From: Candidatus Omnitrophota bacterium
GTDB taxonomy: Bacteria > Omnitrophota > Gorgyraeia > 2-01-FULL-45-10
Reading direction: 5' to 3'
Assembly (NCBI GenBank): GCA_041648975.1
Contig: JBAZNZ010000004.1
Coordinates: 1,779 to 65,778, forward strand
Length of the DNA: 64,000 nucleotides
Shown: piece by piece, positions 1,506-62,410 of the stretch
How the letters are laid out: every line of letters starts with the position of its first letter
How positions within the stretch are numbered: the first letter of the stretch is position 1
Notes under the pieces: generated by a model
What the model was told of the DNA's origin: nothing
Databases searched by the model: none
What the model saw: the letters and a program-made list of their open reading frames with translations, nothing else
Position numbers and translations under genes: made by a program

Positions 1506-2687
1506 CTAAATTTTTACCGCCCTCTTCGCCTCATCGTAAACAGACTTTAACGGAACTTTCTTTTTGCGCGCGAGCTTCACGCATTCGTCGTATTCGGGCG
1601 ACGCCGTGAGGATGCCTTCCGGGCCGCTCGACAGCTTCACCGTAATATTGCCGTATTTTGTCTTTACAGAGGTGGATGCGCGCTCAAGCTTTAGCCTGTC
1701 CGCTTCATAATATCGAAGGCCTATGGCGGTACTCTCACTGAATATCGCCGACGATATACGCCCTATCAGGCGAGGCTCAGCCAGGACAGTCAACTTGAAC
1801 GCCGGTCTCGTTTTCTTCATCTGGATCGTCGTCGTGTAGACATCCAGCGCGCCTTCTTTGAACAATTTTTCAAACAGATATTCGAAACTCTGGGGGCTCA
1901 TGTCATCGATATTAGTTTCTATAACGAATATCCTGTCTTCAATGAAAGATGGCTGGGTCTCGCCTATGAGGACGCGAAGCATGTTCGGCCTCGTCTCCAA
2001 CACCCTCGTCCCGGCGCCGTAACCTATACTCGAGATCTTCATCTGCGGTATACTGCCGAAACCTTTCGAGAGCGTCTTCAATATGCCGGCCCCGGTCGGC
2101 GTTACGAGTTCGGCTTCTATCTCTGAAATATTAAGAGGGACGCCTTTTAGTAGTTCCAGCGTCGCCGGCGCCGGTATCGGCAGGACGCCGTGCTTAGAAT
2201 TGACGAATGTCCTACCCAGACTTATCTTCGACGAATAGACGGCTTCTATGCCGAGTTCATCGAGTGCTATCGCGGCGCCGACGATGTCTATAATGGAATC
2301 GATGTCGCCGAGCTCGTGCAGCCGCAAGTCGCTCGACTTACTTACCCCGTGGATCCCGGCCTCGGAGCTTCCTATATTTGTGAATATCGCTTTCGCGCTA
2401 TCTTTGACCTTCGCGCCCAATGAACTGTTGTCGATTATCAAGAATATCTCTTTTATGGAACGGTGCGAATGGCCCGCCGATCCGGTTACAACGCATTCAA
2501 ATCTTGTCCCGCTGATCCCGCCCCGCATCGCCTTAGTCTTCTTTAACTCATAACCCCTAAGCTTAAGCTTCCCGAGAGCTTTGGTAAGAGCGTCGAAATT
2601 GAGCCCGGCGTCGAGTAACGCAGCGATGGTCATGTCGCCCGATATGCCCGAGAAACAGTCGAAATAAGCAACTTTCATAATAAACAT
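1506..2687 (-). CDS. larC: Nickel-pincer cofactor biosynthesis protein LarC (nickel insertase, DUF111 family)
   Basis: N-terminus MKVAYFDCFSGISGDM and overall length are typical of LarC/DUF111. Confidence 0.85.
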   Translation of the reverse strand: MFIMKVAYFDCFSGISGDMTIAALLDAGLNFDALTKALGKLKLRGYELKKTKAMRGGISGTRFECVVTGSAGHSHRSIKEIFLIIDNSSLGAKVKDSAKAIFTNIGSSEAGIHGVSKSSDLRLHELGDIDSIIDIVGAAIALDELGIEAVYSSKISLGRTFVNSKHGVLPIPAPATLELLKGVPLNISEIEAELVTPTGAGILKTLSKGFGSIPQMKISSIGYGAGTRVLETRPNMLRVLIGETQPSFIEDRIFVIETNIDDMSPQSFEYLFEKLFKEGALDVYTTTIQMKKTRPAFKLTVLAEPRLIGRISSAIFSESTAIGLRYYEADRLKLERASTSVKTKYGNITVKLSSGPEGILTASPEYDECVKLARKKKVPLKSVYDEAKRAVKI

Positions 2688-2691
2688 CCCT

Positions 2692-2741
2692 TGAATGTTA
2701 CGTAAGGTTATAGAACGTTAATTAAGGTTACGTAAGGTTAC
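2692..2741. repeat. 10-bp-period repeat array, left arm (GTTACGTAAG-type units x5) flanking the Avd-like gene
   Basis: gttacgtaag|gttatagaac|gttaattaag|gttacgtaag|gttac. Confidence 0.8.
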
Positions 2742-3187
2742 TTTCGAAATTTCTCTCCCGGTACCTTCCATGTCCCTTCCCGTTCCATCTTATATAGCGA
2801 TTTCATAAATTGATTTGCCATATATGTAGCACTCTGAAACATTCTTGAAAACTCATCAAACTCTTCATTTGATATCAGACCATCTTCAAGGCAATCTTCG
2901 ATATCGCCACTTAACTCTTCTAATGATCCAAGGCTAATTTTTATGCTATGACTATATTCTCCTACAGTTCCCTTTCTGTAACCTTCGCGTATATTTTGTT
3001 TTGCACTTCTAGCGGCGTCTCGCATCTGAGAAACCAATCTAAAATGATTCTTAGAAAATCTTTCTGTTAAATTATGAATAATCTTGCGTATTTGACAAAT
3101 ATCCTGATAAAATTTCAAATTTTCATAAGCTGGCTTTCGCCATCGTCGCTGTAACCTTACGGAACCTTCTCTAACCTTACGTAACAT
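2738..3187 (-). CDS. Four-helix-bundle protein (23S rRNA intervening-sequence protein / Avd-like family, TIGR02436)
   Basis: The YENLKFYQ...IREGY motif pattern is typical of this family. The Arg-rich N-terminal 19 aa are encoded by the flanking repeat array. Confidence 0.8.
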   Translation of the reverse strand: MLRKVREGSVRLQRRWRKPAYENLKFYQDICQIRKIIHNLTERFSKNHFRLVSQMRDAARSAKQNIREGYRKGTVGEYSHSIKISLGSLEELSGDIEDCLEDGLISNEEFDEFSRMFQSATYMANQFMKSLYKMEREGTWKVPGEKFRK

Positions 3188-3197
3188 TATGTAACCT
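3151..3197. repeat. 10-bp-period repeat array, right arm (inverted AACCTTAC-type units), overlaps the start of the Avd-like CDS
   Basis: gtaaccttac|ggaaccttct|ctaaccttac|gtaacattat|gtaacct, which is the reverse complement of the left-arm units. Confidence 0.8.
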
Positions 3198-3936
3198 ACC
3201 TATTGACCAGACTCGCGAAATACGCCGCTCCAAAACCGTTATCGATGTTCACTACCGCCACCCCCGGAGAGCAGCAGTTCATCATCGTAAGAAGCGGCGC
3301 GAGCCCGCCGAAAGAAGCGCCGTAACCCACGCTCGTCGGGACCGCTATGACCGGCTTAGAGACGAGCCCGCTCACTACGCTGGCCAACGCGCCCTCCATC
3401 CCCGCTATCACTATGATCACGCTCGAGCGCTCCAGTTCGGCCTTCTTATCGAGAAGCCTGTGGAGGCCCGCCACGCCAACGTCATACAACATCTTAACCC
3501 TGTTGCCCATAAGCTCGAGAGTGACTCTCGCTTCTTCGGCAACCGGCATATCGGCAGTGCCCGCTGTTATCACCAGCACCTCGCCTTTTTTAAACACAGG
3601 CCTGGCCCTGCAATAGCTTATCGCGTTCGCGTCTTTATCGAATCTGGCTTTGGGGCACGTCTTCTTGAGCAGGCGATAGACTTCTTCGTTTGTGCGGGTC
3701 ACGAGCAGGATGCCGTCGTGGGCTATAATGCGTTTGGCTATTTTAATAATCTGGGCCGGCGTCTTCCCTTTACCGAACACTACCTCGGGAAAGCCGCGGC
3801 GAAGGCTCCTGTGGTTATCGATCTTGGCAAATCCGAGATCCTGGTAGGGAAGGTCCTTCAAGCGCGCGAGCGCCTCGCATACGGAGACGCGGCCCGACTT
3901 CAAATTATTCAAAACCTTACTGATCTTTTCGGTCAT
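3196..3936 (-). CDS. larB: Nickel-pincer cofactor biosynthesis protein LarB (PurE-like carboxylase/hydrolase)
   Basis: PurE/AIR-carboxylase-like C-terminal half (VIIVIAGMEGALASVVSGL...PVIAVPTSVGYG) plus a LarB-type N-terminal domain. Confidence 0.85.
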   Translation of the reverse strand: MTEKISKVLNNLKSGRVSVCEALARLKDLPYQDLGFAKIDNHRSLRRGFPEVVFGKGKTPAQIIKIAKRIIAHDGILLVTRTNEEVYRLLKKTCPKARFDKDANAISYCRARPVFKKGEVLVITAGTADMPVAEEARVTLELMGNRVKMLYDVGVAGLHRLLDKKAELERSSVIIVIAGMEGALASVVSGLVSKPVIAVPTSVGYGASFGGLAPLLTMMNCCSPGVAVVNIDNGFGAAYFASLVNR

Positions 3937-3942
3937 TATATT

Positions 3943-4341
3943 TTATCTGAAGATAAGAAACATCAATACGCCTATTATAAGGAAGGAAAGGATGTAGAAA
4001 TCGTTGAAATAGAAAAAATCTTTCACCCTTTCGACCGTAGTATAGTCGTATTGGCCCGTCACAGGCTCCCTGCGCTTTATCTCCCTCTCCATGTCCGTGT
4101 ATGGATGGCCGGGGGCATTTTTGCCGGCCGGCGCGGCTGGGCCCTGCCCGGCGGGAACGCCCTCCTCGATCTCGGAGATATCGAGCTTTATGGCGTCAAT
4201 CTGCTCTTTCCTGAACCGCAGGAAGGAGCCGCCTATCTTGTATGCCGGTATCTCGCCGATATCCACGAGCCTCATGACCTCTTCTTCGGATACCTTAAGA
4301 TAATCCGCGACCTCTTTTATACTCATTAATTTCTCGGGCAT
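3943..4341 (-). CDS. Tail-anchored protein with an N-terminal excisionase/MerR-type HTH and a C-terminal transmembrane helix
   Basis: SIKEVADYLKVSEEEVMRLVDIGEIPAYKIG matches the HTH_17 pattern. C-terminal FYILSFLIIGVLMFLIF is a hydrophobic helix. Confidence 0.6.
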   Translation of the reverse strand: MPEKLMSIKEVADYLKVSEEEVMRLVDIGEIPAYKIGGSFLRFRKEQIDAIKLDISEIEEGVPAGQGPAAPAGKNAPGHPYTDMEREIKRREPVTGQYDYTTVERVKDFFYFNDFYILSFLIIGVLMFLIFR

Positions 4342-4351
4342 ATGCGCTCTC

Positions 4352-4891
4352 TTATTTGATCTTCTCCGACGCCACCCATTCGTCTATCTTCGAGCGGTCG
4401 AACCTCCAGCTGTCGCCGTCCTTCATGCCCGGCAGCTTTCCGGAGTTCACCCACTCTGCGATCATGGCGGAATCCACCTCCAGATATTTGGCCAGCTCAT
4501 CCGGCGACATGGTATTCAGCCTATGTGCGTGTTCGGCTTTTGCTTTTGACATCATATTGCAGTTCCCCTCAAATACCGCGCCCTCGGCTACACTCAAGAG
4601 CGGCGTCTTTATATCGCCTACCACAACGGCAGGGGCTATCAATTTCAATTCCTTCAGGGCGCTAATATTGCCGTTGACCTTGCCGGCGATGACGATAGAT
4701 TCTCCGGTGATATCGGCGATCACCGCGGCATGTTCGCTTATCATGAGATTTCCCTTGGTATGGAGCGTGCCTTCGAACCTGCCGTTGATCTTCAGATTTA
4801 CAGGATCCTTGAATACGAGCGACCCTTGCATCGAAGCGTCAACATCCAACACCCTCTCCCCTTCATGCCTTCTATCCTTTTTTCCCATCAT
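4352..4891 (-). CDS. Bactofilin-domain protein fused to a C-terminal excisionase-type HTH
   Basis: Central bactofilin beta-helical repeats (GxxxGxVxG-like: INGRFEGTLHTKGNLMISEHAAVIADITGESIVIAGKVNGNI...). C-terminal MSPDELAKYLEVDSAMIAEWVNSGKLPG is an HTH_17-like motif. Confidence 0.7.
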   Translation of the reverse strand: MMGKKDRRHEGERVLDVDASMQGSLVFKDPVNLKINGRFEGTLHTKGNLMISEHAAVIADITGESIVIAGKVNGNISALKELKLIAPAVVVGDIKTPLLSVAEGAVFEGNCNMMSKAKAEHAHRLNTMSPDELAKYLEVDSAMIAEWVNSGKLPGMKDGDSWRFDRSKIDEWVASEKIK

Positions 4892-4920
4892 ATCTCACCT
4901 CCTGATTTTGCGAAGCAAAA

Positions 4921-5601
4921 TCAATCCGTCTCCCACTTCACGTTCCTGACTCCGTCCAGATGGCTTATCTCCGTTAATATCTGGTCGGCAAATTTCGTCT
5001 GATAAAATTTCAAGCCGAGTTTCAATATCATATTGGAGCCGTCCTTGGAACGCTCAACTTCGAAATCGGTTATCTCGGTCCTGTATTCCGCCAATATCTC
5101 CCTGATGATCTTCAACTGCTCTATACCGTCTTTTGTGTCAATGATTATATTCCTGTACCAATCCTTCCTGATCATCGCGTGTTCAAGGCGCGAAAATATC
5201 ATCAGCGCTATCAGGGTCAATGCCGCCGTTACCACCGCGCCGAAATATAATCCCGAACCTACGGCAAGCCCTATGCCGGCCGCGACCCACAGGCTCGCCG
5301 CTGTCGTAAGGCCTCGCACTGAAGAACGGTAATGCATTATCGCGCCCGCCCCCAGGAATCCTATACCCGTGATGACACCGGCCGCGATCCTTGCCGGATC
5401 GATGGGAGCCTTGGATGAATATACGTCGAACATGTGTATCGACGTCAGCATCACAAGCGTCGATCCTACACAAAGCAGTATGTGCGTCCTGAACCCCGCG
5501 GCCCTGCCGTGGAATTCGCGCTCAAAACCTATTGCCCCGCTCAATACCGCTGCCAGCACAAGCCTGAATAGCATCACCCAATTCGTCAACATACGCAACA
5601 A
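4921..5601 (-). CDS. mgtC: MgtC/SapB family membrane protein
   Basis: N-terminal MgtC signature ...LAAVLSGAIGFEREFHGRAAGFRTHILLCVGSTLVM. Confidence 0.85.
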   Translation of the reverse strand: MLRMLTNWVMLFRLVLAAVLSGAIGFEREFHGRAAGFRTHILLCVGSTLVMLTSIHMFDVYSSKAPIDPARIAAGVITGIGFLGAGAIMHYRSSVRGLTTAASLWVAAGIGLAVGSGLYFGAVVTAALTLIALMIFSRLEHAMIRKDWYRNIIIDTKDGIEQLKIIREILAEYRTEITDFEVERSKDGSNMILKLGLKFYQTKFADQILTEISHLDGVRNVKWETD

Positions 5602-5629
5602 CCCTCCGGCGAAGTTAAAAGATACACTT

Positions 5630-6637
5630 TTACCTTAATTCTAAATTCGGTTCAGCGCTCAGATAAAGATCGGACTTATAGCCTTTCTTATATAATGCCT
5701 CACCCAGGACCCCGACCATGGCCGCGTTATCGACGCAATATTCCATTTTCGGAAAATAGACCTTTACGCCAAAGTGCTCCGAATCTATAAGAAGTTTCTG
5801 CCTGAGCCTTTTGTTCGCGGCCACGCCGCCGCCTATAACTATCCTGTTGGTCTTGCAAAACCTTGCGGCGCGGTACGCCTTCTCGACCAGCACATCCAGG
5901 ATCGCCTCCTGGAATTCATAACATATATCATTGACGAGCGCCTTATCCGGCTTTTCCTGCCTTGCCCTTACATAATATAATACCGCAGTTTTGACCCCGC
6001 TGAAACTAAAATCTAAAGAATCTTTTCCGAGATAACTTCGCGGAAAAGAGACATTGGTTTTGCCCGTCGCAAGGCCTGCCGCCTTTTCGATGACCGGCCC
6101 GCCCGGATATCCCAGGCCCAGCAGCTTCGCCACTTTGTCGTAAGCCTCACCCACAGCGTCGTCCTGCGTCTGCCCGAGGAGCTTCTGCTTATCCACGTCT
6201 TCACAAAGGAAGAGCGCCGTGTGGCCGCCCGATACAACAAGCCCCACAAAAGGGAATTCAGGCCTGTCATCCTCATTCAGGAACGAGCTGTAAAGATGCG
6301 CGAGTATATGGTTCACTCCTATGATAGGAAGATCGAGGCAGTAACTCAACGATTTGGCCATCGATATTCCTATTAATAGAGCCCCGACCAGGCCGGGCCC
6401 GTTCGTTACGGCAATAAGTTTTATATCTTTAAGCCCTTTGCCGGAATCCTTCAGCGCTCCGGCCATCACCTCGGAGATATATTCCACGTGGTACCGTGAG
6501 GCTATCTCGGGAACAACGCCGCCGTATTTCTTATGAAGGTGGACGCTCGATGATACCTCATTAGACAGGACAGATCTGCCTTCCGACACCGAAACGCCTG
6601 TTTCATCGCATGAAGTCTCTATACCGAGCGTCAACAT
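5630..6637 (-). CDS. tsaD: tRNA N6-adenosine threonylcarbamoyltransferase TsaD
   Basis: MLTLGIETSCDETGVSV start and Kae1/TsaD family motifs throughout. Confidence 0.95.
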   Translation of the reverse strand: MLTLGIETSCDETGVSVSEGRSVLSNEVSSSVHLHKKYGGVVPEIASRYHVEYISEVMAGALKDSGKGLKDIKLIAVTNGPGLVGALLIGISMAKSLSYCLDLPIIGVNHILAHLYSSFLNEDDRPEFPFVGLVVSGGHTALFLCEDVDKQKLLGQTQDDAVGEAYDKVAKLLGLGYPGGPVIEKAAGLATGKTNVSFPRSYLGKDSLDFSFSGVKTAVLYYVRARQEKPDKALVNDICYEFQEAILDVLVEKAYRAARFCKTNRIVIGGGVAANKRLRQKLLIDSEHFGVKVYFPKMEYCVDNAAMVGVLGEALYKKGYKSDLYLSAEPNLELR

Positions 6638-6647
6638 ATATTCGATA

Positions 6648-7496
6648 TCACTCCATCATCCTGGAAAGAGGCACGAAGATTATGCCTTCCCTGCGCATCT
6701 CGGGCATCATCTTCGCAAGGACCGAGATCGTATTCTTCCTGTCATGGCAGACCGCTATAGCCCTGCCGTTCCTGAGCGCCGATCTCTTAAGCTCCATTAG
6801 CTGCTTTTCTATATACGCGGGATCGTTCGAATTGTCCAGGAAGACGTCCCTCCTCGCGTAACGGATCCCCGCGGCGGCTGCCGCTTGCCGGCATATGGAA
6901 TTCTCCGAAGTAAGGCTGTCAAAAAAATACAACCCATGCTTTTTTAAACGCTTGAATACGGCCGACATGACCTTCACATCTTCGGTAGCCTTCGAGCCCA
7001 TATGGTTCGACACGCCCTTTATCCCGGGAACACTCGCTATCTCCTTGTCAACCACCGCGAATATCTCCTCCTGAGTCATCCCGGACTTTATCGTATCCTG
7101 TTCTTCCCTGACGTCTTTCCGGTGAGGCTCTAACGGCATATGCAAAATAACTTCCTGGCCGCGCAGGTTCGCCAGCCTCGCTATCTCGGAGGAGTAACGC
7201 AGGTTCGGCAGCACCGATAATGTTATCGGCTCTTTTATATCAAATAGATCGTCCAGATTGGACACATTGTAACCGAAGTCGTCCATCACTATGGCGACTT
7301 TGGGGCCGCCTGCTTTCTTCTTCGCGGCAGTGGCCGCGGAAGCCGCCGGGGCTCTCTTCTTCGCGGCCGGAGCGGCGACGCGTATCCTCGGCGTTTCCTG
7401 TTTCGGCCGGAAGAGATGCGTATTCCGCCAGTATATTACTCCTGCGATTATGACCAATGCCGCTATTACCGCAAATCTGATTAATCTGGTATTCAT
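6648..7496 (-). CDS. Divergent polysaccharide deacetylase family protein (YibQ-like)
   Basis: Signal anchor, then VAIVMDDFGYN...ILHMPLEP...NHMGS, the YibQ/DUF610 pattern. Confidence 0.75.
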   Translation of the reverse strand: MNTRLIRFAVIAALVIIAGVIYWRNTHLFRPKQETPRIRVAAPAAKKRAPAASAATAAKKKAGGPKVAIVMDDFGYNVSNLDDLFDIKEPITLSVLPNLRYSSEIARLANLRGQEVILHMPLEPHRKDVREEQDTIKSGMTQEEIFAVVDKEIASVPGIKGVSNHMGSKATEDVKVMSAVFKRLKKHGLYFFDSLTSENSICRQAAAAAGIRYARRDVFLDNSNDPAYIEKQLMELKRSALRNGRAIAVCHDRKNTISVLAKMMPEMRREGIIFVPLSRMME

Positions 7497-8788
7497 TTTT
7501 CCTGTGGTTTATATATTTTAAAGGCCTTTATCAAATTCACCGCCATATCTAGCTGGTTATCCATCTCGACCTTATCCTGATCGAGCGCCTCTTTCGGGCG
7601 CGGCGCGCCTTCTCTTTCGACCTTCTCAAAGACGTCGGAACCATCCGGTTTCTTTTCATCCCTGGACTCTTCTCTATCTATTACCACGTCCGGCACAACA
7701 CCGGCATTCTTGATAAGCTTGCCGCTCGGCGTTAGATATAAGGCTGTTGTGAACCTGACAGCCGAATTATCCCTTAGCGGGACCACCGTCTGGACAGACG
7801 CCTTGCCGAACGTCTTTGTGCCGAGGACTATCCCCCGCTTATTATCCTGGACCGCTCCGGCGACTATCTCCGAAGCGCTTGCCGACCCTTCGTTCACCAT
7901 CACGACAAGCGGATAGTCCGGGTGCGTAGACTTCCCGCTCGACTTGAATACGGCGTCATTCTCGGAGCTCCTCGATTTTATCGATACAATGACCTTATCC
8001 TTAGGCAACAATCTTTCGGACACTCCTATCGCGCCCTCCAGGAGGCCTCCCGGATTATTGCGAAGGTCCAGTATGAGCGCGTTCATGCCGTCGGCTTCGA
8101 GCCTCTTCATAGCCGCCTCAAGATCGCGCGCAGTATTCTCCTGGAACTCTACAAGCTTTATATACCCTATCTTATCCTCGAGGAAAACGGCTTTCTTTAT
8201 GCTCTGTATCTTTATCACCGCTCTCTTAAGCGGCACCTCAAGGATCTTCTGGTCTTTCTCCCTCCATATCGTAAGGGCAAGCGGCGTACCCGGCTTGCCG
8301 CGCATCTCTTTCACAGCCTCATCGAGGGTCATCTTCTTCGTAATCTTGCCGTCTATCTTAACTATCTTGTCGCCCGGTTTTATGCCGGCCGTCTCCGCGG
8401 GAGTGCCGGATATGGGCGCGATCACCGTAAGTATCCCGTCCTTCATCGATATCTCTATGCCTATCCCGCCGAACTCGCCTTTAGTCTCAAGCCTCAGGTC
8501 GTTGTACTCGTCCGGCTCGAGGAACTGGCTGAAGTCGTCCATTGACGAAAGCATCCCCTTCAGCGCGCCGTAAACAAGTTTTTTTGAATCCACTTCTTCG
8601 ACGTAATCGCTCCTTAAGATGCTTATGGCGTCGGCAAAGAGTTCCAGCTGCGCGTACAGGTTGTCTTTGGACCTCTCTTTATCCGGTTTGCCTTTTTCGA
8701 ATCCGCCCGTCGCGATCGACGTTACAAGGACCAGCAATATCATGAAAAAGAATATCTTCCAACGCCTTGATATCGTCATTATCTTCAT
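7493..8788 (-). CDS. C-terminal processing peptidase, S41 family (CtpA/Prc-like) with PDZ domain
   Basis: PDZ (GIKPGDKIVKIDG) followed by the S41 catalytic region (LILDLRNNPGGLL, serine/lysine dyad context). Confidence 0.85.
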   Translation of the reverse strand: MKIMTISRRWKIFFFMILLVLVTSIATGGFEKGKPDKERSKDNLYAQLELFADAISILRSDYVEEVDSKKLVYGALKGMLSSMDDFSQFLEPDEYNDLRLETKGEFGGIGIEISMKDGILTVIAPISGTPAETAGIKPGDKIVKIDGKITKKMTLDEAVKEMRGKPGTPLALTIWREKDQKILEVPLKRAVIKIQSIKKAVFLEDKIGYIKLVEFQENTARDLEAAMKRLEADGMNALILDLRNNPGGLLEGAIGVSERLLPKDKVIVSIKSRSSENDAVFKSSGKSTHPDYPLVVMVNEGSASASEIVAGAVQDNKRGIVLGTKTFGKASVQTVVPLRDNSAVRFTTALYLTPSGKLIKNAGVVPDVVIDREESRDEKKPDGSDVFEKVEREGAPRPKEALDQDKVEMDNQLDMAVNLIKAFKIYKPQEK

Positions 8789-10215
8789 TCCCCCAGGACC
8801 TTTTTAAGAATCTTATTCACGACCGCGGGATTCGCTTTGCCTTTCGTCTGCCTCATGACCTGCCCAACGAGGAAAGTGAACGCGTTCTTCTTCCCGAGCC
8901 TGTAATCATCGACTGATTTTTTATTAACCTCCAGAACAGCCTTCACCGCTTCCTCCAGCTTCCCGGCGTCGCTTATCTGAGACATCCCCTTGCTCTTCAC
9001 GATCTCATGCGGTTCTGTTCCGGTCTCGATCGCCTCCGCAAGAACCGACTTCGCCATCTTTCCGCTTATAGTGCCGTCGTCGATCATCTTTATCAGGCCC
9101 ACCAGCCCTTCAGGCGGAACCTTCAGTTCCTTTATCGATATTCCCTTCGTATTCAGGTGGGCCATGATATCGCCCGTAATCCAGTTCGTCAGCGCCTTTG
9201 CGCCGGTATATAGTTTTACGCATTCTTCAAAATAATCGGCCAGGTCTATCTCGCTCGTCAGGACATTGGCGTCGTACTCGGAAAGGCCGAGATCCTTCTT
9301 ATACCTCTCTGACCTCGTCTCCGGCAGCTCGGGCATCTGGTCGAGAGCCTTCCGGACGACCTTAGCGTCGACTACAAAAGGGACAAGGTCAGGTTCGGGA
9401 AAATACCTGTAATCCTCGGCGTACTCCTTGGAGCGCATCGATACGGTGACCTGCTTTTCCGCGTCCCACAACCTCGTCTCCTGGACGATCTTCTCGCGGT
9501 CCGCCATTGCCGAGACCTGCCGCTTCGATTCATGCTCGAGGGCGAGCCTCACGCCTTTGAATGTATTCATGTTCTTGACTTCGACTTTCGTGCCGAGGAC
9601 CTTCTCACCCTGCGGCCTGATCGATATATTCGCGTCACACCTGAGCGAACCCTTCTCCATATCGCAATCCGACACCTTTAGATACTGCAGTATCGATTTC
9701 AGCCGCGTCAGGTAATCATAAGCTTCGTCCGGCGCGCTCAGGTCGGGTTCCGTCACTATCTCCAGAAGCGGCATTCCGCTGCGGTTATAATCGACGAGGC
9801 TGTAACTCTCGCCTTCCGGATGAATAAGCTTGCCCGCGTCCTCTTCGAGGTGGACGCGCTTTACCCTGATGCGCTTCTTCGCGCCCCGGGGGGCTATGTC
9901 GACGTATCCGTCGTAAGAGAGCGGCATATCATACTGCGATATCTGGAAATTTTTCGGCAGATCCGGATAGTAGTAGTTCTTCCTGTCGAACTTAATAAGT
10001 TTCTGTATCTTGCAGTTAAGGGCAAGCGCGACTTTTATCGAATAGAAGAACGCCTCTTCGTTCAACACGGGCAGGCTTCCCGGAAAACCCATGCATACCG
10101 GACAGACCTGAGAATTCGGCCTCTGTCCGAATTTCGTCGCGCATCCGCAGAACGCTTTAGTCTGCGTCGCAAGCTGCAGGTGGACCTCAAGCCCTATTAC
10201 TGTCTCGTATGTCAT
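8785..10215 (-). CDS. gatB: Asp-tRNA(Asn)/Glu-tRNA(Gln) amidotransferase subunit B
   Basis: MTYETVIGLEVHLQL...CGC...CPVCMG GatB signature, full length. Confidence 0.95.
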   Translation of the reverse strand: MTYETVIGLEVHLQLATQTKAFCGCATKFGQRPNSQVCPVCMGFPGSLPVLNEEAFFYSIKVALALNCKIQKLIKFDRKNYYYPDLPKNFQISQYDMPLSYDGYVDIAPRGAKKRIRVKRVHLEEDAGKLIHPEGESYSLVDYNRSGMPLLEIVTEPDLSAPDEAYDYLTRLKSILQYLKVSDCDMEKGSLRCDANISIRPQGEKVLGTKVEVKNMNTFKGVRLALEHESKRQVSAMADREKIVQETRLWDAEKQVTVSMRSKEYAEDYRYFPEPDLVPFVVDAKVVRKALDQMPELPETRSERYKKDLGLSEYDANVLTSEIDLADYFEECVKLYTGAKALTNWITGDIMAHLNTKGISIKELKVPPEGLVGLIKMIDDGTISGKMAKSVLAEAIETGTEPHEIVKSKGMSQISDAGKLEEAVKAVLEVNKKSVDDYRLGKKNAFTFLVGQVMRQTKGKANPAVVNKILKKVLGE

Positions 10216-10284: not shown

Positions 10285-10656
10285 TTATACAGACGCTATA
10301 AGCTTCCCGAGCATATTACATATATGGATACAATTTTGTCTCAGTCCCGTGTGGCGCTGTTCTGAAATAATATTTTGCCTGGCCAGTATAGTCAGCATAG
10401 GAATACATTCTCGTGCAGAATTCAAAGAGATGCGATAGAATTGAGTCTTTTCTCTCTTCGATAATTTACCACTGCCCTCTGCCATATTATTAACTATCGA
10501 TAGAGATGCTCTGCGTAATTGATCCGCCAGGGAGAATTGGTAATCCCGCGGCAATTCTTTTGTCACATTAAATATATCCTGCACAAATTCTAATCCCATC
10601 CCATACACTTTTAATCTTTCAAAATCAAATATATATAGTTCTTTTTCATTATACAT
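10285..10656 (-). CDS. Four-helix-bundle protein (23S rRNA IVS / Avd-like family), second copy
   Basis: Family pattern (FERLKVYGMGLEFVQDIF ... NMAEGSGK). Sits exactly between two inverted TGTGTAA arrays. Confidence 0.8.
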   Translation of the reverse strand: MYNEKELYIFDFERLKVYGMGLEFVQDIFNVTKELPRDYQFSLADQLRRASLSIVNNMAEGSGKLSKREKTQFYRISLNSARECIPMLTILARQNIISEQRHTGLRQNCIHICNMLGKLIASV

Positions 10657-10667
10657 AGCAACATTCC

Positions 10668-10704
10668 ACCATCATTACACATTACACCTTACACATTACA
10701 CAAA
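10668..10704. repeat. TTACACA heptamer array, right arm flanking Avd-like gene 2
   Basis: cattacac attacac cttacac attacac aaat. Confidence 0.8.
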
Positions 10705-25233: not shown

Positions 25234-25284
25234 TCAAATGTTACGTAATGTTATGTAAGGTTCATTAAGGTTACGTAACGTTAC
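25234..25284. repeat. 10-bp-period GTTAC-type array (single arm, 5 units) between rpmA and rplU, abutting the rplU stop
   Basis: caaatgttac|gtaatgttat|gtaaggttca|ttaaggttac|gtaacgttac|tag. Confidence 0.8.
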
Positions 25285-37599: not shown

Positions 37600-37968
37600 T
37601 TATAATGTGTGGCCCGTTGTGCTATTCGGACATACCGGAGCAGCAGCCACTGTTGCAGGTGTGGCATACGCAGTAGTTCCGCATGTAGGCCATTTCTTCA
37701 GGTAATCAGGAACAACACCGATCGTAGCGCCGTCTGTATCCTTCACTACGGCATCCGTATCGTTCTTGCCCTGATCTATGGCCCACACCTGGATCGCTCC
37801 CTGTATCTGCTTCAGGTTGCCGATGCAGGCGTTCTTCAACGCAGTCTGCCTTGCTCTGACGAAGTTCGGAATGGCTATCGCCGCCAATAGACCGATAATT
37901 GCGACTACTATCATAATTTCAACAAGCGTAAAGCCTTTCCTGTTCATCTTTATCATCATATATATCAC
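37600..37968 (-). CDS. pilA: Type IV major pilin (PilA-like)
   Basis: NRKG|FTLVEIMIVVAIIGLLAAIAIPNF canonical class III signal. Own consensus promoter; two downstream terminator hairpins. Confidence 0.75.
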   Translation of the reverse strand: MIYMMIKMNRKGFTLVEIMIVVAIIGLLAAIAIPNFVRARQTALKNACIGNLKQIQGAIQVWAIDQGKNDTDAVVKDTDGATIGVVPDYLKKWPTCGTTAYATPATVAAAPVCPNSTTGHTL

Positions 37969-42825: not shown

Positions 42826-43275
42826 TCAATGGCGGTTATAGTTCTTGCTTATCGCGTTAGTCACGTCGGTCATCGTGCTCACGAAGACCTGGACCTTGCA
42901 CTTCGTAAGCATCTCTATATCCTCAACTGCCTGGAAATTCAGCGGATTCGACATCGCTATCGTAAGGAGGTCGCCTATTTTATCTATAGCTATAAGGTTA
43001 TATTGTTTAGCGACGTGCTCGGGTATCATCTTGACGGCTTCGCTATTCACCTCATAAAATTCCAGAGGAAGATAGGGGAAACCGTATTGGACGGTCAGGG
43101 CCTGCGCTATCTCCTCTTCCTTGGCGAAACCCATCGCGACCATTATCTGGCCTATCAGGCCGCCCTTCTCCTCCTGAACCTTCAAGGCCTTAGCCAATTG
43201 CGACTCGTTTATCACGCCTCTTTCCAGTAGAAGTTCACCCAATTGTTTCGAGACAATACGTCTTATTGGAGACAT
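42826..43275 (-). CDS. Stand-alone GSPII_E N-terminal (MshEN-like) domain protein
   Basis: Two tandem N-domain repeats and nothing else. First repeat QLGELLLERGVINESQLAKALKVQ fits the MshEN c-di-GMP-binding motif except R to Q at position 1. Confidence 0.6.
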   Translation of the reverse strand: MSPIRRIVSKQLGELLLERGVINESQLAKALKVQEEKGGLIGQIMVAMGFAKEEEIAQALTVQYGFPYLPLEFYEVNSEAVKMIPEHVAKQYNLIAIDKIGDLLTIAMSNPLNFQAVEDIEMLTKCKVQVFVSTMTDVTNAISKNYNRH

Positions 43276-62307: not shown

Positions 62308-62410
62308 CCGTAAGGTTAGCGAAAGTTAATTAATGTTACGTAAGGTTACATCTCTAACTATATTTAACCTTACGTAACCTTCTCTAACTTTACGTAACAT
62401 TACGTAACCT
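62308..62410. repeat. Palindromic 10-bp-period array (4 GTTA-type units + 6 TAAC-type units) with no gene at its centre, between mtnP and yggT
   Basis: ccgtaaggtta|gcgaaagtta|attaatgtta|cgtaaggtta|c atct ctaac|tatatttaac|cttacgtaac|cttctctaac|tttacgtaac|attacgtaac. Confidence 0.85.

Follow-up and report, generated by a model that had tools for sequence, protein, structure and literature searches.

Examination of a 64,000-nucleotide stretch of DNA from a Candidatus Omnitrophota bacterium (hereafter the window) reveals two adjacent genes on the minus strand, at 4352-4891 and 3943-4341, that link a bactofilin to a pair of helix-turn-helix (HTH) domains. The first codes for a bactofilin polymer subunit with a winged HTH fused to its C-terminus, and the second for a small protein that combines an N-terminal winged HTH with a C-terminal membrane anchor. 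Both open reading frames (ORFs) lie where an earlier note on this DNA had placed them. The two genes constitute a true module, and the pair is conserved across the phylum Omnitrophota as a chromosomal feature. We tentatively propose that the two proteins build a single membrane-bound bactofilin scaffold, in which the membrane-anchored partner would be the membrane receptor and the likelier DNA contact, with the HTH of the bactofilin serving mainly as a docking domain. Below, numbers prefixed with L denote related loci and those prefixed with P denote database proteins.

Profile searches recovered two domains in the product of the first gene, namely the bactofilin domain (Pfam: PF04519; residues 14-111, profile positions 2-97 of 98, 83.6 bits against a cutoff of 27.9, E 1e-23) and the HTH_17 domain (Pfam: PF12728; residues 128-175, 45.3 bits against a cutoff of 27, E 1e-11). 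The C-terminal segment, for which the earlier note had asked for a check against HTH profiles, also passes the TIGR01764 'excise' model (42.7 bits, cutoff 28.8). The AlphaFold2 model of this protein, with a mean predicted local distance difference test score (pLDDT) of 89, shows a β-helix (residues 14-113), a short helix (116-125) and a winged HTH (127-175). Foldseek searches of the PDB matched the core to the bactofilins of Caulobacter crescentus (BacA, 2n3d; template modelling score, TM, 0.81 on the target) and Thermus thermophilus (6rib, TM 0.77). The C-terminal domain matched BldC at a root mean square deviation (rmsd) of 1.4-1.5 Å over 49 residues, along with the RdfS and Pukovnik excisionases, a phage terminase HTH, the RacA-DNA complex and CbpM (3ucs), which has the same fold but binds protein rather than DNA. 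A profile search of PDB sequences likewise returned BacA, the T. thermophilus bactofilin TtBac, BldC (E 0.002) and the 'chromosome-anchoring protein RacA' (E 0.003). Furthermore, F107 aligns with the phenylalanine critical for polymerization in BacA of C. crescentus (CcBacA F130) and TtBac (F105), the position being occupied among the 84 orthologs by Leu in 44, Phe in 32, Ile in 6 and Met in 2. Thus, profile, fold and interface residue all identify the first protein as a member of the bactofilin family. A flexible linker of 13 residues (114-126) joins the core of this protein to the folded winged HTH. No other stretch of the family is as poorly conserved or as variable in length as this linker; the HTH is conserved to the same degree as the core. 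All 84 orthologs also begin with a short Lys/Arg-rich peptide (e.g. MMGKKDK, MALRRR, MAFRKKKK, MLGKGKK), which might target the membrane; the published membrane-targeting consensus of bactofilins is MFSKKKK, with a hydrophobic residue at position 2 followed by lysines (PMC12448750).

The product of the second gene carries the same type of domain at its N-terminus (PF12728 at residues 5-50, 48.1 bits, cutoff 27; TIGR01764, 44.8 bits, cutoff 28.8), where it is strongly conserved in the 80 orthologs. Both proteins therefore belong to the HTH_17 sequence family, and the domain calls of the earlier note, a bactofilin core and an HTH_17 in each of the two genes, are upheld by scores above the cutoffs. 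A Pro/Ala/Glu-rich linker, variable in both sequence and length, leads from the HTH to a juxtamembrane motif with the near-invariant consensus Y-[TS]-x2-[ED]-[RK]-x2-D-F-F-Y-F-N-D-F-Y, in which D108, F109, D114 and F115 are each kept in 79-80 of the 80 orthologs. This high conservation suggests that the motif might mediate an interaction and not simply anchor the protein. In all 80 orthologs the most hydrophobic 19-residue segment (median Kyte-Doolittle mean 2.37) stops 0-3 residues short of the C-terminus. The AlphaFold2 model of the partner (mean pLDDT 66) displays a winged-HTH topology, a disordered linker and a single long helix (102-131, pLDDT 79-96); its HTH reaches a pLDDT of only 55-72 on a shallow alignment, and this model was left out of the fold searches. 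Given that the hydrophobic helix lies at the very C-terminus, the partner is a tail-anchored protein whose winged HTH faces the cytoplasm.

The two genes were followed in a tblastn survey of the window proteins against 85 related loci. The membrane-HTH gene lies directly downstream of the fusion gene, on the same strand, in 79/79 loci with downstream DNA; the earlier note had already described the two genes of the window as adjacent. The median gap is about 10 bases, and 10 bases separate the bactofilin stop codon from the start of the membrane-HTH gene in the window. This strict adjacency holds across proteins diverged to ~52% identity, with the same arrangement in the divergent pair of L087, and the two genes are probably translationally coupled. 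The order around the pair is tsaD-mgtC-pair-larB: tsaD is conserved upstream and mgtC usually so, and downstream the related loci have either larB-larC or else a gene for a protein with tetratricopeptide repeats (TPR) and a PDZ domain. The position of the pair between tsaD/mgtC and larB/PDZ is fixed in ~80 species. Gaps of 6-29 bases flank the pair, as in a tightly packed operon, and a scan of 2600-6800 found no enrichment of promoters and no terminator between the genes. Among the neighbors, mgtC, the PDZ protein, a CtpB-like protease and a polysaccharide deacetylase are of envelope or membrane type, and the annotated remainder of the window is housekeeping in character (gatCAB, ksgA, pdxA, surA-like genes, mfd, argS, proAB, ileS and yggT).

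The bactofilin-HTH protein of the window is 100% identical to an NCBI protein from a metagenome-assembled genome of Candidatus Omnitrophota. More than 120 clusters at 90% identity contain both domains in a one-ORF architecture with at least 70% identity to the window protein, and in an exhaustive search of 1.84 billion representatives ~22 clusters at 50% identity align over the full length. When a single genome was scanned for each GTDB species, at least 535 fusion loci came up. The best 80 of these, which were inspected, all come from Omnitrophota records or from third-party-annotation (TPA) bins labelled 'uncultured Planctomycetia' with identical synteny, and the most divergent fusion among the matches listed (P0297, 27% identity) is also from Omnitrophota (WOR_2). 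With the same single ORF intact in hundreds of independent assemblies, a frameshift or assembly artefact joining two genes, a possibility raised in the earlier note, is rejected. No copy of the fusion was found among 72,556 plasmid and 50,697 phage records. The plasmid-anchoring role suggested in that note does not agree with this distribution or with the conserved chromosomal housekeeping operon, and a plasmid or phage partition device is likewise rejected. A literature search found no relevant mention of bactofilins in Omnitrophota.

The DNA-reading residues of the two HTH domains were compared in one profile alignment of 84 bactofilin HTHs, 80 partner HTHs, four free-standing 65-residue HTH_17 paralogs, BldC and RacA. 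In BldC, Lys26 and Arg30 read bases, Thr27, Thr29 and Lys33 touch phosphates, and His46, Arg47 and Arg48 dock the wing, with the R30A mutation abolishing DNA binding (PMC5859096). RacA has an invariant Lys15 and Arg19 at the equivalents of positions 26 and 30, and its R19A mutant no longer binds DNA (PMC4914108). The position of BldC R30 and RacA R19, which is E146 in the bactofilin HTH of the window and R24 in its partner, is Asp or Glu in 92% of the bactofilin HTHs, Arg or Lys in 60% of the partners and Lys in 100% of the free-standing paralogs. At K26 (RacA K15) the bactofilin HTH has Ser, Asn, Ala or Gly, the partner is 65% acidic and the paralog has Val. The corresponding states at K33 are Asn/Ser/Asp, 66% acidic and 100% Lys; at R22, 98% acidic, mixed and 100% Arg; and at R50, 96% acidic, 96% basic and 100% Lys. 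Over the equivalents of BldC A15, R22 and R50 the bactofilin HTH is thus 96-98% acidic, and its exposed recognition-helix positions 141-145 are poorly conserved; in and around its wing it keeps a few basic residues, namely K152, K157 and R166, each conserved in 100%, and R163, where 81% have Arg/Lys and 14% have His. The partner is basic at the equivalents of BldC 29 (75%), 30 (60%), 41 (84%), 48 (98%) and 50 (96%), and K35, R42, R44 and K45 of its wing are basic in 84-100% of the 80 orthologs. The median net charge of the domain is -2 in the bactofilins, -2 in the partners and +7 in the paralogs (BldC +6 and RacA 0 over the same span). In this comparison the bactofilin HTH lacks the DNA-reading residues and the partner retains them in part. 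Judged from these residues, direct canonical DNA binding by the bactofilin HTH appears unlikely, and for the partner HTH the chances of DNA binding seem about evenly balanced. The earlier note had envisaged a polymer that binds DNA directly; this is doubtful given the 92% Asp/Glu at the R30/R19 position and the non-basic residues at K26, K33 and R50.

The free-standing HTH_17 protein of the alignment is encoded in related loci a few genes downstream of the pair, after a gene for a HAMP-domain protein (L001 10235-10432; L002 10693-10890; L004 10734-10931; L022 ~7109-7261). Its recognition helix is strongly basic and BldC-like (TIYKHAKCGKLP), and its net charge is +7. In the window this position would fall beyond base 1, which places the gene outside the window.

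BLASTP found no match between the two HTH domains of the window, which are related at the profile level only. They have opposite charges at the equivalent positions 15, 30, 36 and 50. Position 30 of the bactofilin is non-acidic in 7 species, and in 5 of these 7 the partner is acidic there, with a full Lys/Glu swap between the two proteins in L037; in the remaining 73 species the partner is acidic at this position in 12. Such a charge pattern would fit a possible direct contact between the two domains, and we regard it as a lead rather than a result.

In light of the above observations, we tentatively favor a scaffold to which both proteins contribute and in which the two HTH domains have unequal roles. 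The bactofilin would polymerize on the inner face of the membrane and display an array of HTH domains along the filament. Bactofilin filaments are non-polar (PMC12448750), and the C-terminal HTH domains should therefore pair at tail-to-tail junctions. The tail-anchored protein would act as a receptor or client of the polymer, giving it stable membrane attachment. Because the partner has kept the recognition-helix Arg/Lys and the basic wing, it would be the likelier DNA contact, and because the bactofilin HTH is charge-reversed at the DNA-reading positions, it would more likely be a docking domain. The latter could possibly pair with the partner HTH by complementary charge, and its own DNA contacts would be no more than weak. 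As a result, chromosomal DNA, or a particular locus, would be tethered to a bactofilin patch at the membrane. The logic of this tether would be that of RacA-DivIVA, RocS and Par, with a nucleotide-independent β-helical polymer in place of coiled coils. The earlier note had likewise arrived at an anchoring device, and that logic has precedents both in these systems (PMC4914108, PMC11500499) and in the physical interaction of BacR with bactofilins (PMC13649987), in each of which a winged HTH is combined with an oligomerizing element and an anchor at the membrane.

Several observations weigh against this proposal. Everything in it beyond domain content, conservation and synteny, that is, polymerization, membrane binding, DNA binding and the interaction of the two proteins, is inference. 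Membrane targeting by the N-terminal peptide is only inferred because the hydrophobic part of the peptide is variable, and it is absent in many orthologs (e.g. MRRRREEE). The operon context (tsaD, mgtC, larB and the PDZ protein) gives no hint of chromosome biology. Both HTH domains are net acidic, with a median of -2 as against +7 in the free-standing paralog and +6 in BldC. The recognition helix of the partner begins with a conserved Glu-Glu-Glu (residues 19-21, BldC 25-27), where BldC has a Pro-Lys-Thr that contacts base and phosphate, and the partner is acidic at the key Arg position in 21% of species. As to the contact between the two domains, both proteins are acidic at position 30 in 12 species, which misfits a simple salt bridge, and the 7 species with a non-acidic bactofilin position represent just two or three lineages. 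Mutual information with average product correction (APC) over 80 pairs (effective number ~59) gave top pairs that are scattered and at the intra-protein background.

A divergent bactofilin-HTH_17 paralog (P0297/P0391, ~27% identity to the window protein) is found without a membrane-HTH neighbor in WOR_2 Omnitrophota (L090 6-5168, GCA_001805895.1, Omnitrophica WOR_2; also L086, L091 and L088). It lies downstream of a gene for a ParA/Soj-type ATPase of 465 residues with a KGGCGKT Walker A motif and a C-terminal AMPK1_CBM domain. The operon further codes for three proteins without Pfam matches upstream and an MscS-like membrane protein downstream, and in the subfamily member of L088 a histidine kinase and a sigma-54 response regulator follow. 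The HTH of this paralog likewise has a Glu at the BldC R30 position. We count the location of the paralog beside a ParA/Soj-type ATPase in favor of a DNA tether.

A more elaborate form of the tether is conceivable, in which the pair constitutes a ParABS-free and nucleotide-independent anchor or organizer of the chromosome, with the bactofilin as a membrane-bound rail and a charge-complementary heterodimer of the acidic and the basic-winged HTH clamping the DNA to it; we consider this rather doubtful. Somewhat less probable still is the model of the earlier note, namely that both HTH domains bind DNA, so that the bactofilin filament is itself a DNA-binding polymer and anchors the chromosome together with the membrane HTH. 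Both domains pass the curated thresholds of HTH_17 and TIGR01764, and their fold matches DNA-bound BldC and RacA. The bactofilin HTH also retains the conserved basic residues K152, K157, R163 and R166 in and around the wing, the DNA-binding domain of RacA is itself not net basic (charge 0), and the avidity of a polymer could offset weak sites. An acidic residue of the recognition helix can, moreover, read cytosine. Nevertheless, it is hard to reconcile this model with Asp or Glu in 92% of 84 species at the very position at which R30A in BldC and R19A in RacA abolish binding (PMC5859096, PMC4914108), with the lack of basic residues at K26 and K33, with 96-98% acidic residues at A15, R22 and R50, or with the poor conservation of recognition-helix positions 141-145 in the bactofilin.

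The opposite extreme, to which we give the same probability as to DNA binding by both domains, dispenses with DNA altogether. Here the HTH domains would have been re-used as a complementary docking pair, and the scaffold and its tail-anchored protein would serve an envelope-related task such as cell shape, the division site or the positioning of a membrane complex. Both domains are net acidic and have acidic residues where DNA would be contacted, their charges are reciprocal at positions 15, 30, 36 and 50, and there is a suggestive charge swap between the two proteins. These features are all consistent with this idea, as are the protein-binding use of the same fold in CbpM (3ucs) and the envelope- or membrane-related neighbors (mgtC, PDZ, the CtpB-like protease and the polysaccharide deacetylase). 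Furthermore, canonical bactofilins recruit membrane clients, for example PbpC (PMC12448750). However, almost every characterized member of this HTH family binds DNA, the partner retains five basic positions on its DNA-facing side, and the evidence from covariation is thin.

Less likely again is a switch of the BacR type, in which one or both HTH proteins would be transcription factors gated by polymerization or by sequestration at the membrane, the membrane HTH perhaps being released by proteolysis. In Bacillus subtilis, bactofilins bind BacR, reduce its DNA binding and keep it at the membrane (PMC13649987), and BldC, the closest match in structure, regulates transcription (PMC5859096). Immediately upstream of the bactofilin gene there is a palindrome (4903-4923), and genes for a PDZ-domain protein and an S41 protease are part of the conserved cluster. 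Yet the pair is embedded in a long, tightly packed housekeeping operon with gaps of 6-29 bases and no enrichment of promoters, and DUF4004 matches neither protein. The sequence of the palindrome is not conserved, many orthologous loci lack it, and an RNA hairpin explains it equally well or better. The tail anchor leaves 0-3 residues outside the membrane, and the partner therefore has no sensor domain.

The palindrome itself is a perfect hairpin, TGATTTTGC-GAA-GCAAAATCA, with a 10-pair stem when folded as RNA. It is common to the close orthologs L006, L008, L015, L017, L018 and L030 without being universal. Distant orthologs often have unrelated hairpins at the same site, some with ACTTACG/CGTAAGT arms (L069, L074, L085), or none, and only 20% of loci reach z < -2 relative to mononucleotide shuffles. 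An autoregulatory operator at this site is rejected given its restriction to close relatives, and the palindrome is better treated as an intercistronic RNA hairpin.

A part in mobile elements or defense, as an excisionase (Xis or recombination directionality factor, RDF) or the MAD1 component of a MADS system, with the adjacent bactofilin incidental or artefactual, was suggested by the JGI name of both proteins ('excisionase family DNA binding protein') and by antiphage_MADS1 as the top NCBIfam match, but is effectively refuted by synteny: the tsaD/mgtC-larB/PDZ position is fixed, the neighborhood has no integrase, methylase or other mobile-element gene, plasmid and phage copies are lacking in the records searched, the fusion ORF is intact throughout the assemblies, and the MAD1 model (NF047737) scores only 45.9 and 51.4 bits against an equivalog cutoff of 80. 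A mobile-element excisionase or MADS defense component is accordingly rejected; no integrase stands beside the pair, and no defense gene was found in its annotated neighborhood. Other named families fare no better. The magnetosome MamR model (NF040990) reaches 21 bits against a cutoff of 100, the likeness being limited to the HTH, and matches to the BldC subfamily model fall far under the cutoff. DUF4004 (PF13171) gave no match at E <= 0.1 in either protein, and the Pfam scan gave no MerR, MerR_1 or effector-domain match in either. The layout of MerR proteins is also absent, as the bactofilin HTH ends its protein and the partner HTH is followed by the Pro/Ala/Glu linker and the transmembrane helix. 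Neither protein is a functional excisionase, a MerR regulator or a member of the RacA/RocS/Par, BacR/DUF4004, MAD1 or MamR families.

Table 1. Features of the bactofilin-HTH gene pair and its upstream junction (window coordinates)
Feature	Coordinates	Strand	Basis or remark
Bactofilin-winged-HTH fusion gene, 179 aa	4352..4891	(-)	ORF including stop; PF04519 and PF12728 above gathering cutoffs
N-terminal basic peptide, residues 1-13, MMGKKDRRHEGER	4853..4891	(-)	Putative membrane-targeting sequence
Bactofilin β-helix core, residues 14-113	4553..4852	(-)	PF04519; pLDDT 93-98; TM 0.81 to BacA 2n3d
Variable linker between core and HTH, residues 114-126	4514..4552	(-)	pLDDT 74-78
C-terminal winged HTH of Xis/BldC/RacA type with acidic recognition helix, residues 127-175	4367..4513	(-)	PF12728; BldC rmsd 1.4 Å
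Tail-anchored winged-HTH gene, 132 aa	3943..4341	(-)	ORF including stop; PF12728 at residues 5-50
Partner N-terminal winged HTH, residues 5-52	4186..4329	(-)	PF12728
Juxtamembrane motif YDYT..ER.KDFFYFNDFY, residues 98-116	3994..4050	(-)	Ortholog conservation
C-terminal transmembrane helix (tail anchor), ~residues 113-131	3949..4005	(-)	Hydropathy
Perfect hairpin TGATTTTGC-GAA-GCAAAATCA	4903..4923	(-)	Overlaps mgtC stop codon; abuts Shine-Dalgarno of bactofilin gene (4892-4903)

Comparison with canonical bactofilins (CcBacA and TtBac) shows that the Omnitrophota protein is like them in its core (83.6 bits, TM 0.81), in the Phe/Leu at the interface and in having a short basic N-terminal peptide, which resembles the MFSKKKK consensus. 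It differs in that the C-terminal tail, disordered in the canonical proteins, is here a folded winged HTH on a short linker, that the N-terminal peptide often lacks a hydrophobic residue, and that a tail-anchored partner is always encoded adjacent to it. Its nearest plain relatives include a bactofilin-PilZ fusion of 253 residues and a bactofilin of 176 residues with a C-terminal membrane segment (P0293 and P0277); given that plain bactofilins also occur with PilZ or transmembrane adaptors, a folded C-terminal module is not unique in itself. Another protein, P0363 (417 residues), is made up of HTH_17 repeated seven times in tandem. A bactofilin-HTH fusion that is joined by an obligate tail-anchored HTH partner throughout a phylum appears to be undescribed.

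The BacA-PbpC system of C. crescentus likewise includes a membrane protein that spans the membrane once and could, through its cytoplasmic part, bind the polymer and aid its attachment; this bitopic client, PbpC, can substitute for the membrane-targeting sequence of the bactofilin (PMC12448750). PbpC, however, is a cell-wall synthase with a large periplasmic domain, whereas the Omnitrophota partner is essentially devoid of an extracytoplasmic part and has an HTH as its cytoplasmic part. In B. subtilis, the gene of BacR (YhbD, DUF4004), a MerR-like HTH protein, is genetically linked to those of the bactofilins BacE and BacF, and BacR is physically bound by bactofilins and held at the membrane (PMC13649987). 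In contrast to BacR, which is soluble, dimeric and ~210 residues long, one of the Omnitrophota HTH domains has a covalent link to the bactofilin and the other is part of an integral membrane protein. A bactofilin scaffold is also tied to chromosome organization in the BacNOP-PadC-ParABS system of Myxococcus xanthus (PMC5703909); there the DNA contact is ParB and the adaptor PadC, whereas no gene for ParA, ParB or PadC lies beside the main Omnitrophota pair.

Among DNA-tethering proteins, RacA of B. subtilis, RocS of Streptococcus pneumoniae and Par of the Staphylococcus aureus plasmid pSK1 share the HTH fold with the pair, RacA being matched both by profile (E 0.003) and by Foldseek. RacA and RocS tether DNA to the pole or membrane by means of this fold, an oligomerizer and an anchor (PMC4914108, PMC11500499). 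The same logic of DNA-binding domain, oligomerizer and membrane or pole anchor can be read in RacA-DivIVA, RocS and Par alike, and RocS requires multivalency for membrane binding, as does the membrane-targeting sequence of bactofilins. Unlike these systems, the Omnitrophota pair has no coiled coil but a bactofilin polymer, divides the functions between two polypeptides, and has a transmembrane helix as its anchor instead of DivIVA or an amphipathic helix. Nor are the invariant Lys15 and Arg19 of RacA kept, the bactofilin HTH having Ser/Asn and Asp/Glu in their places. The likeness to the RacA/RocS/Par family is thus confined to the fold, and by analogy the pair may work in a similar way. The best structural matches for the HTH domains are BldC of Streptomyces and Xis/RdfS (rmsd 1.4-1.6 Å), which are likewise single winged-HTH units; these oligomerize head-to-tail and are free-standing and strongly basic, whereas the Omnitrophota domains are net acidic and tied to a polymer or to the membrane.

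The surroundings of the pair include a sporadic insertion. A gene for a four-helix-bundle protein of the PF05635 family ('23S rRNA intervening sequence protein') lies at 2738-3187 between larB and larC and is absent from nearly all orthologous loci, occurring elsewhere only in L012. Since this insertion is sporadic, the 'Avd-like element' and the split lar genes that the earlier note placed beside the pair are incidental to it: the insertion was correctly recognized, but a functional tie of the gene, the repeats or the lar genes to the pair finds no support. Copies of TAACCTTACG are inverted around the PF05635 gene (2701-2740 and 3152-3181), and the same inverted arrangement recurs free of any gene at 62309-62348 and 62365-62404, where the purine nucleoside phosphorylase gene and yggT are separated by a gap, with degenerate copies at 25244-25283. 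The 10-mer TAACCTTACG has 14 matches at <=1 mismatch versus 3.0 expected, a number reached in 0/100 shuffles, and its inverted pairs look like a stem-forming insertion cassette. A second PF05635 gene (10285-10656; 96.5 bits, with a weak bAvd match) lies between gatB and gatA, which are directly adjacent in the related loci L001, L002 and L004; at its 5' end is a tandem repeat of four CATTACA units (10673-10702) that differs from TAACCTTACG. In L001 larC (Ni_insertion) and the downstream PDZ gene are called as a single 570-residue product (7702-9414), which could be a gene fusion or an assembly frameshift; they are separate genes in the window (1506-2687 and 513-1496) and in other loci. The middle of the window contains a cluster resembling type IV pilus or type II secretion systems (37600-37968, 42826-43275 and neighbors), which includes a protein with a prepilin-type N-terminal methylation motif and an MshEN-domain protein.

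Bactofilins are widespread, but how they are linked to their clients, DNA above all, is known in few cases, where an indirect connection is made through PadC-ParB in Myxococcus or through BacR in Bacillus. In Omnitrophota, an uncultivated phylum whose members are mostly ultra-small and which lacks a cultured model organism, the link is hard-wired, the polymer subunit being fused to one HTH and its obligate membrane partner carrying the other. The two proteins are small (179 and 132 residues) and should be easily expressed, and in vitro work can therefore address both direct DNA organization by a bactofilin and the conversion of an HTH into a docking domain. Should the charge-reversed HTH turn out to bind protein, the automatic annotation of members of this family as 'DNA-binding' would need caution. 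Whichever mechanism applies, the pair provides a clean marker, at the level of the phylum, for the cell biology of Omnitrophota.

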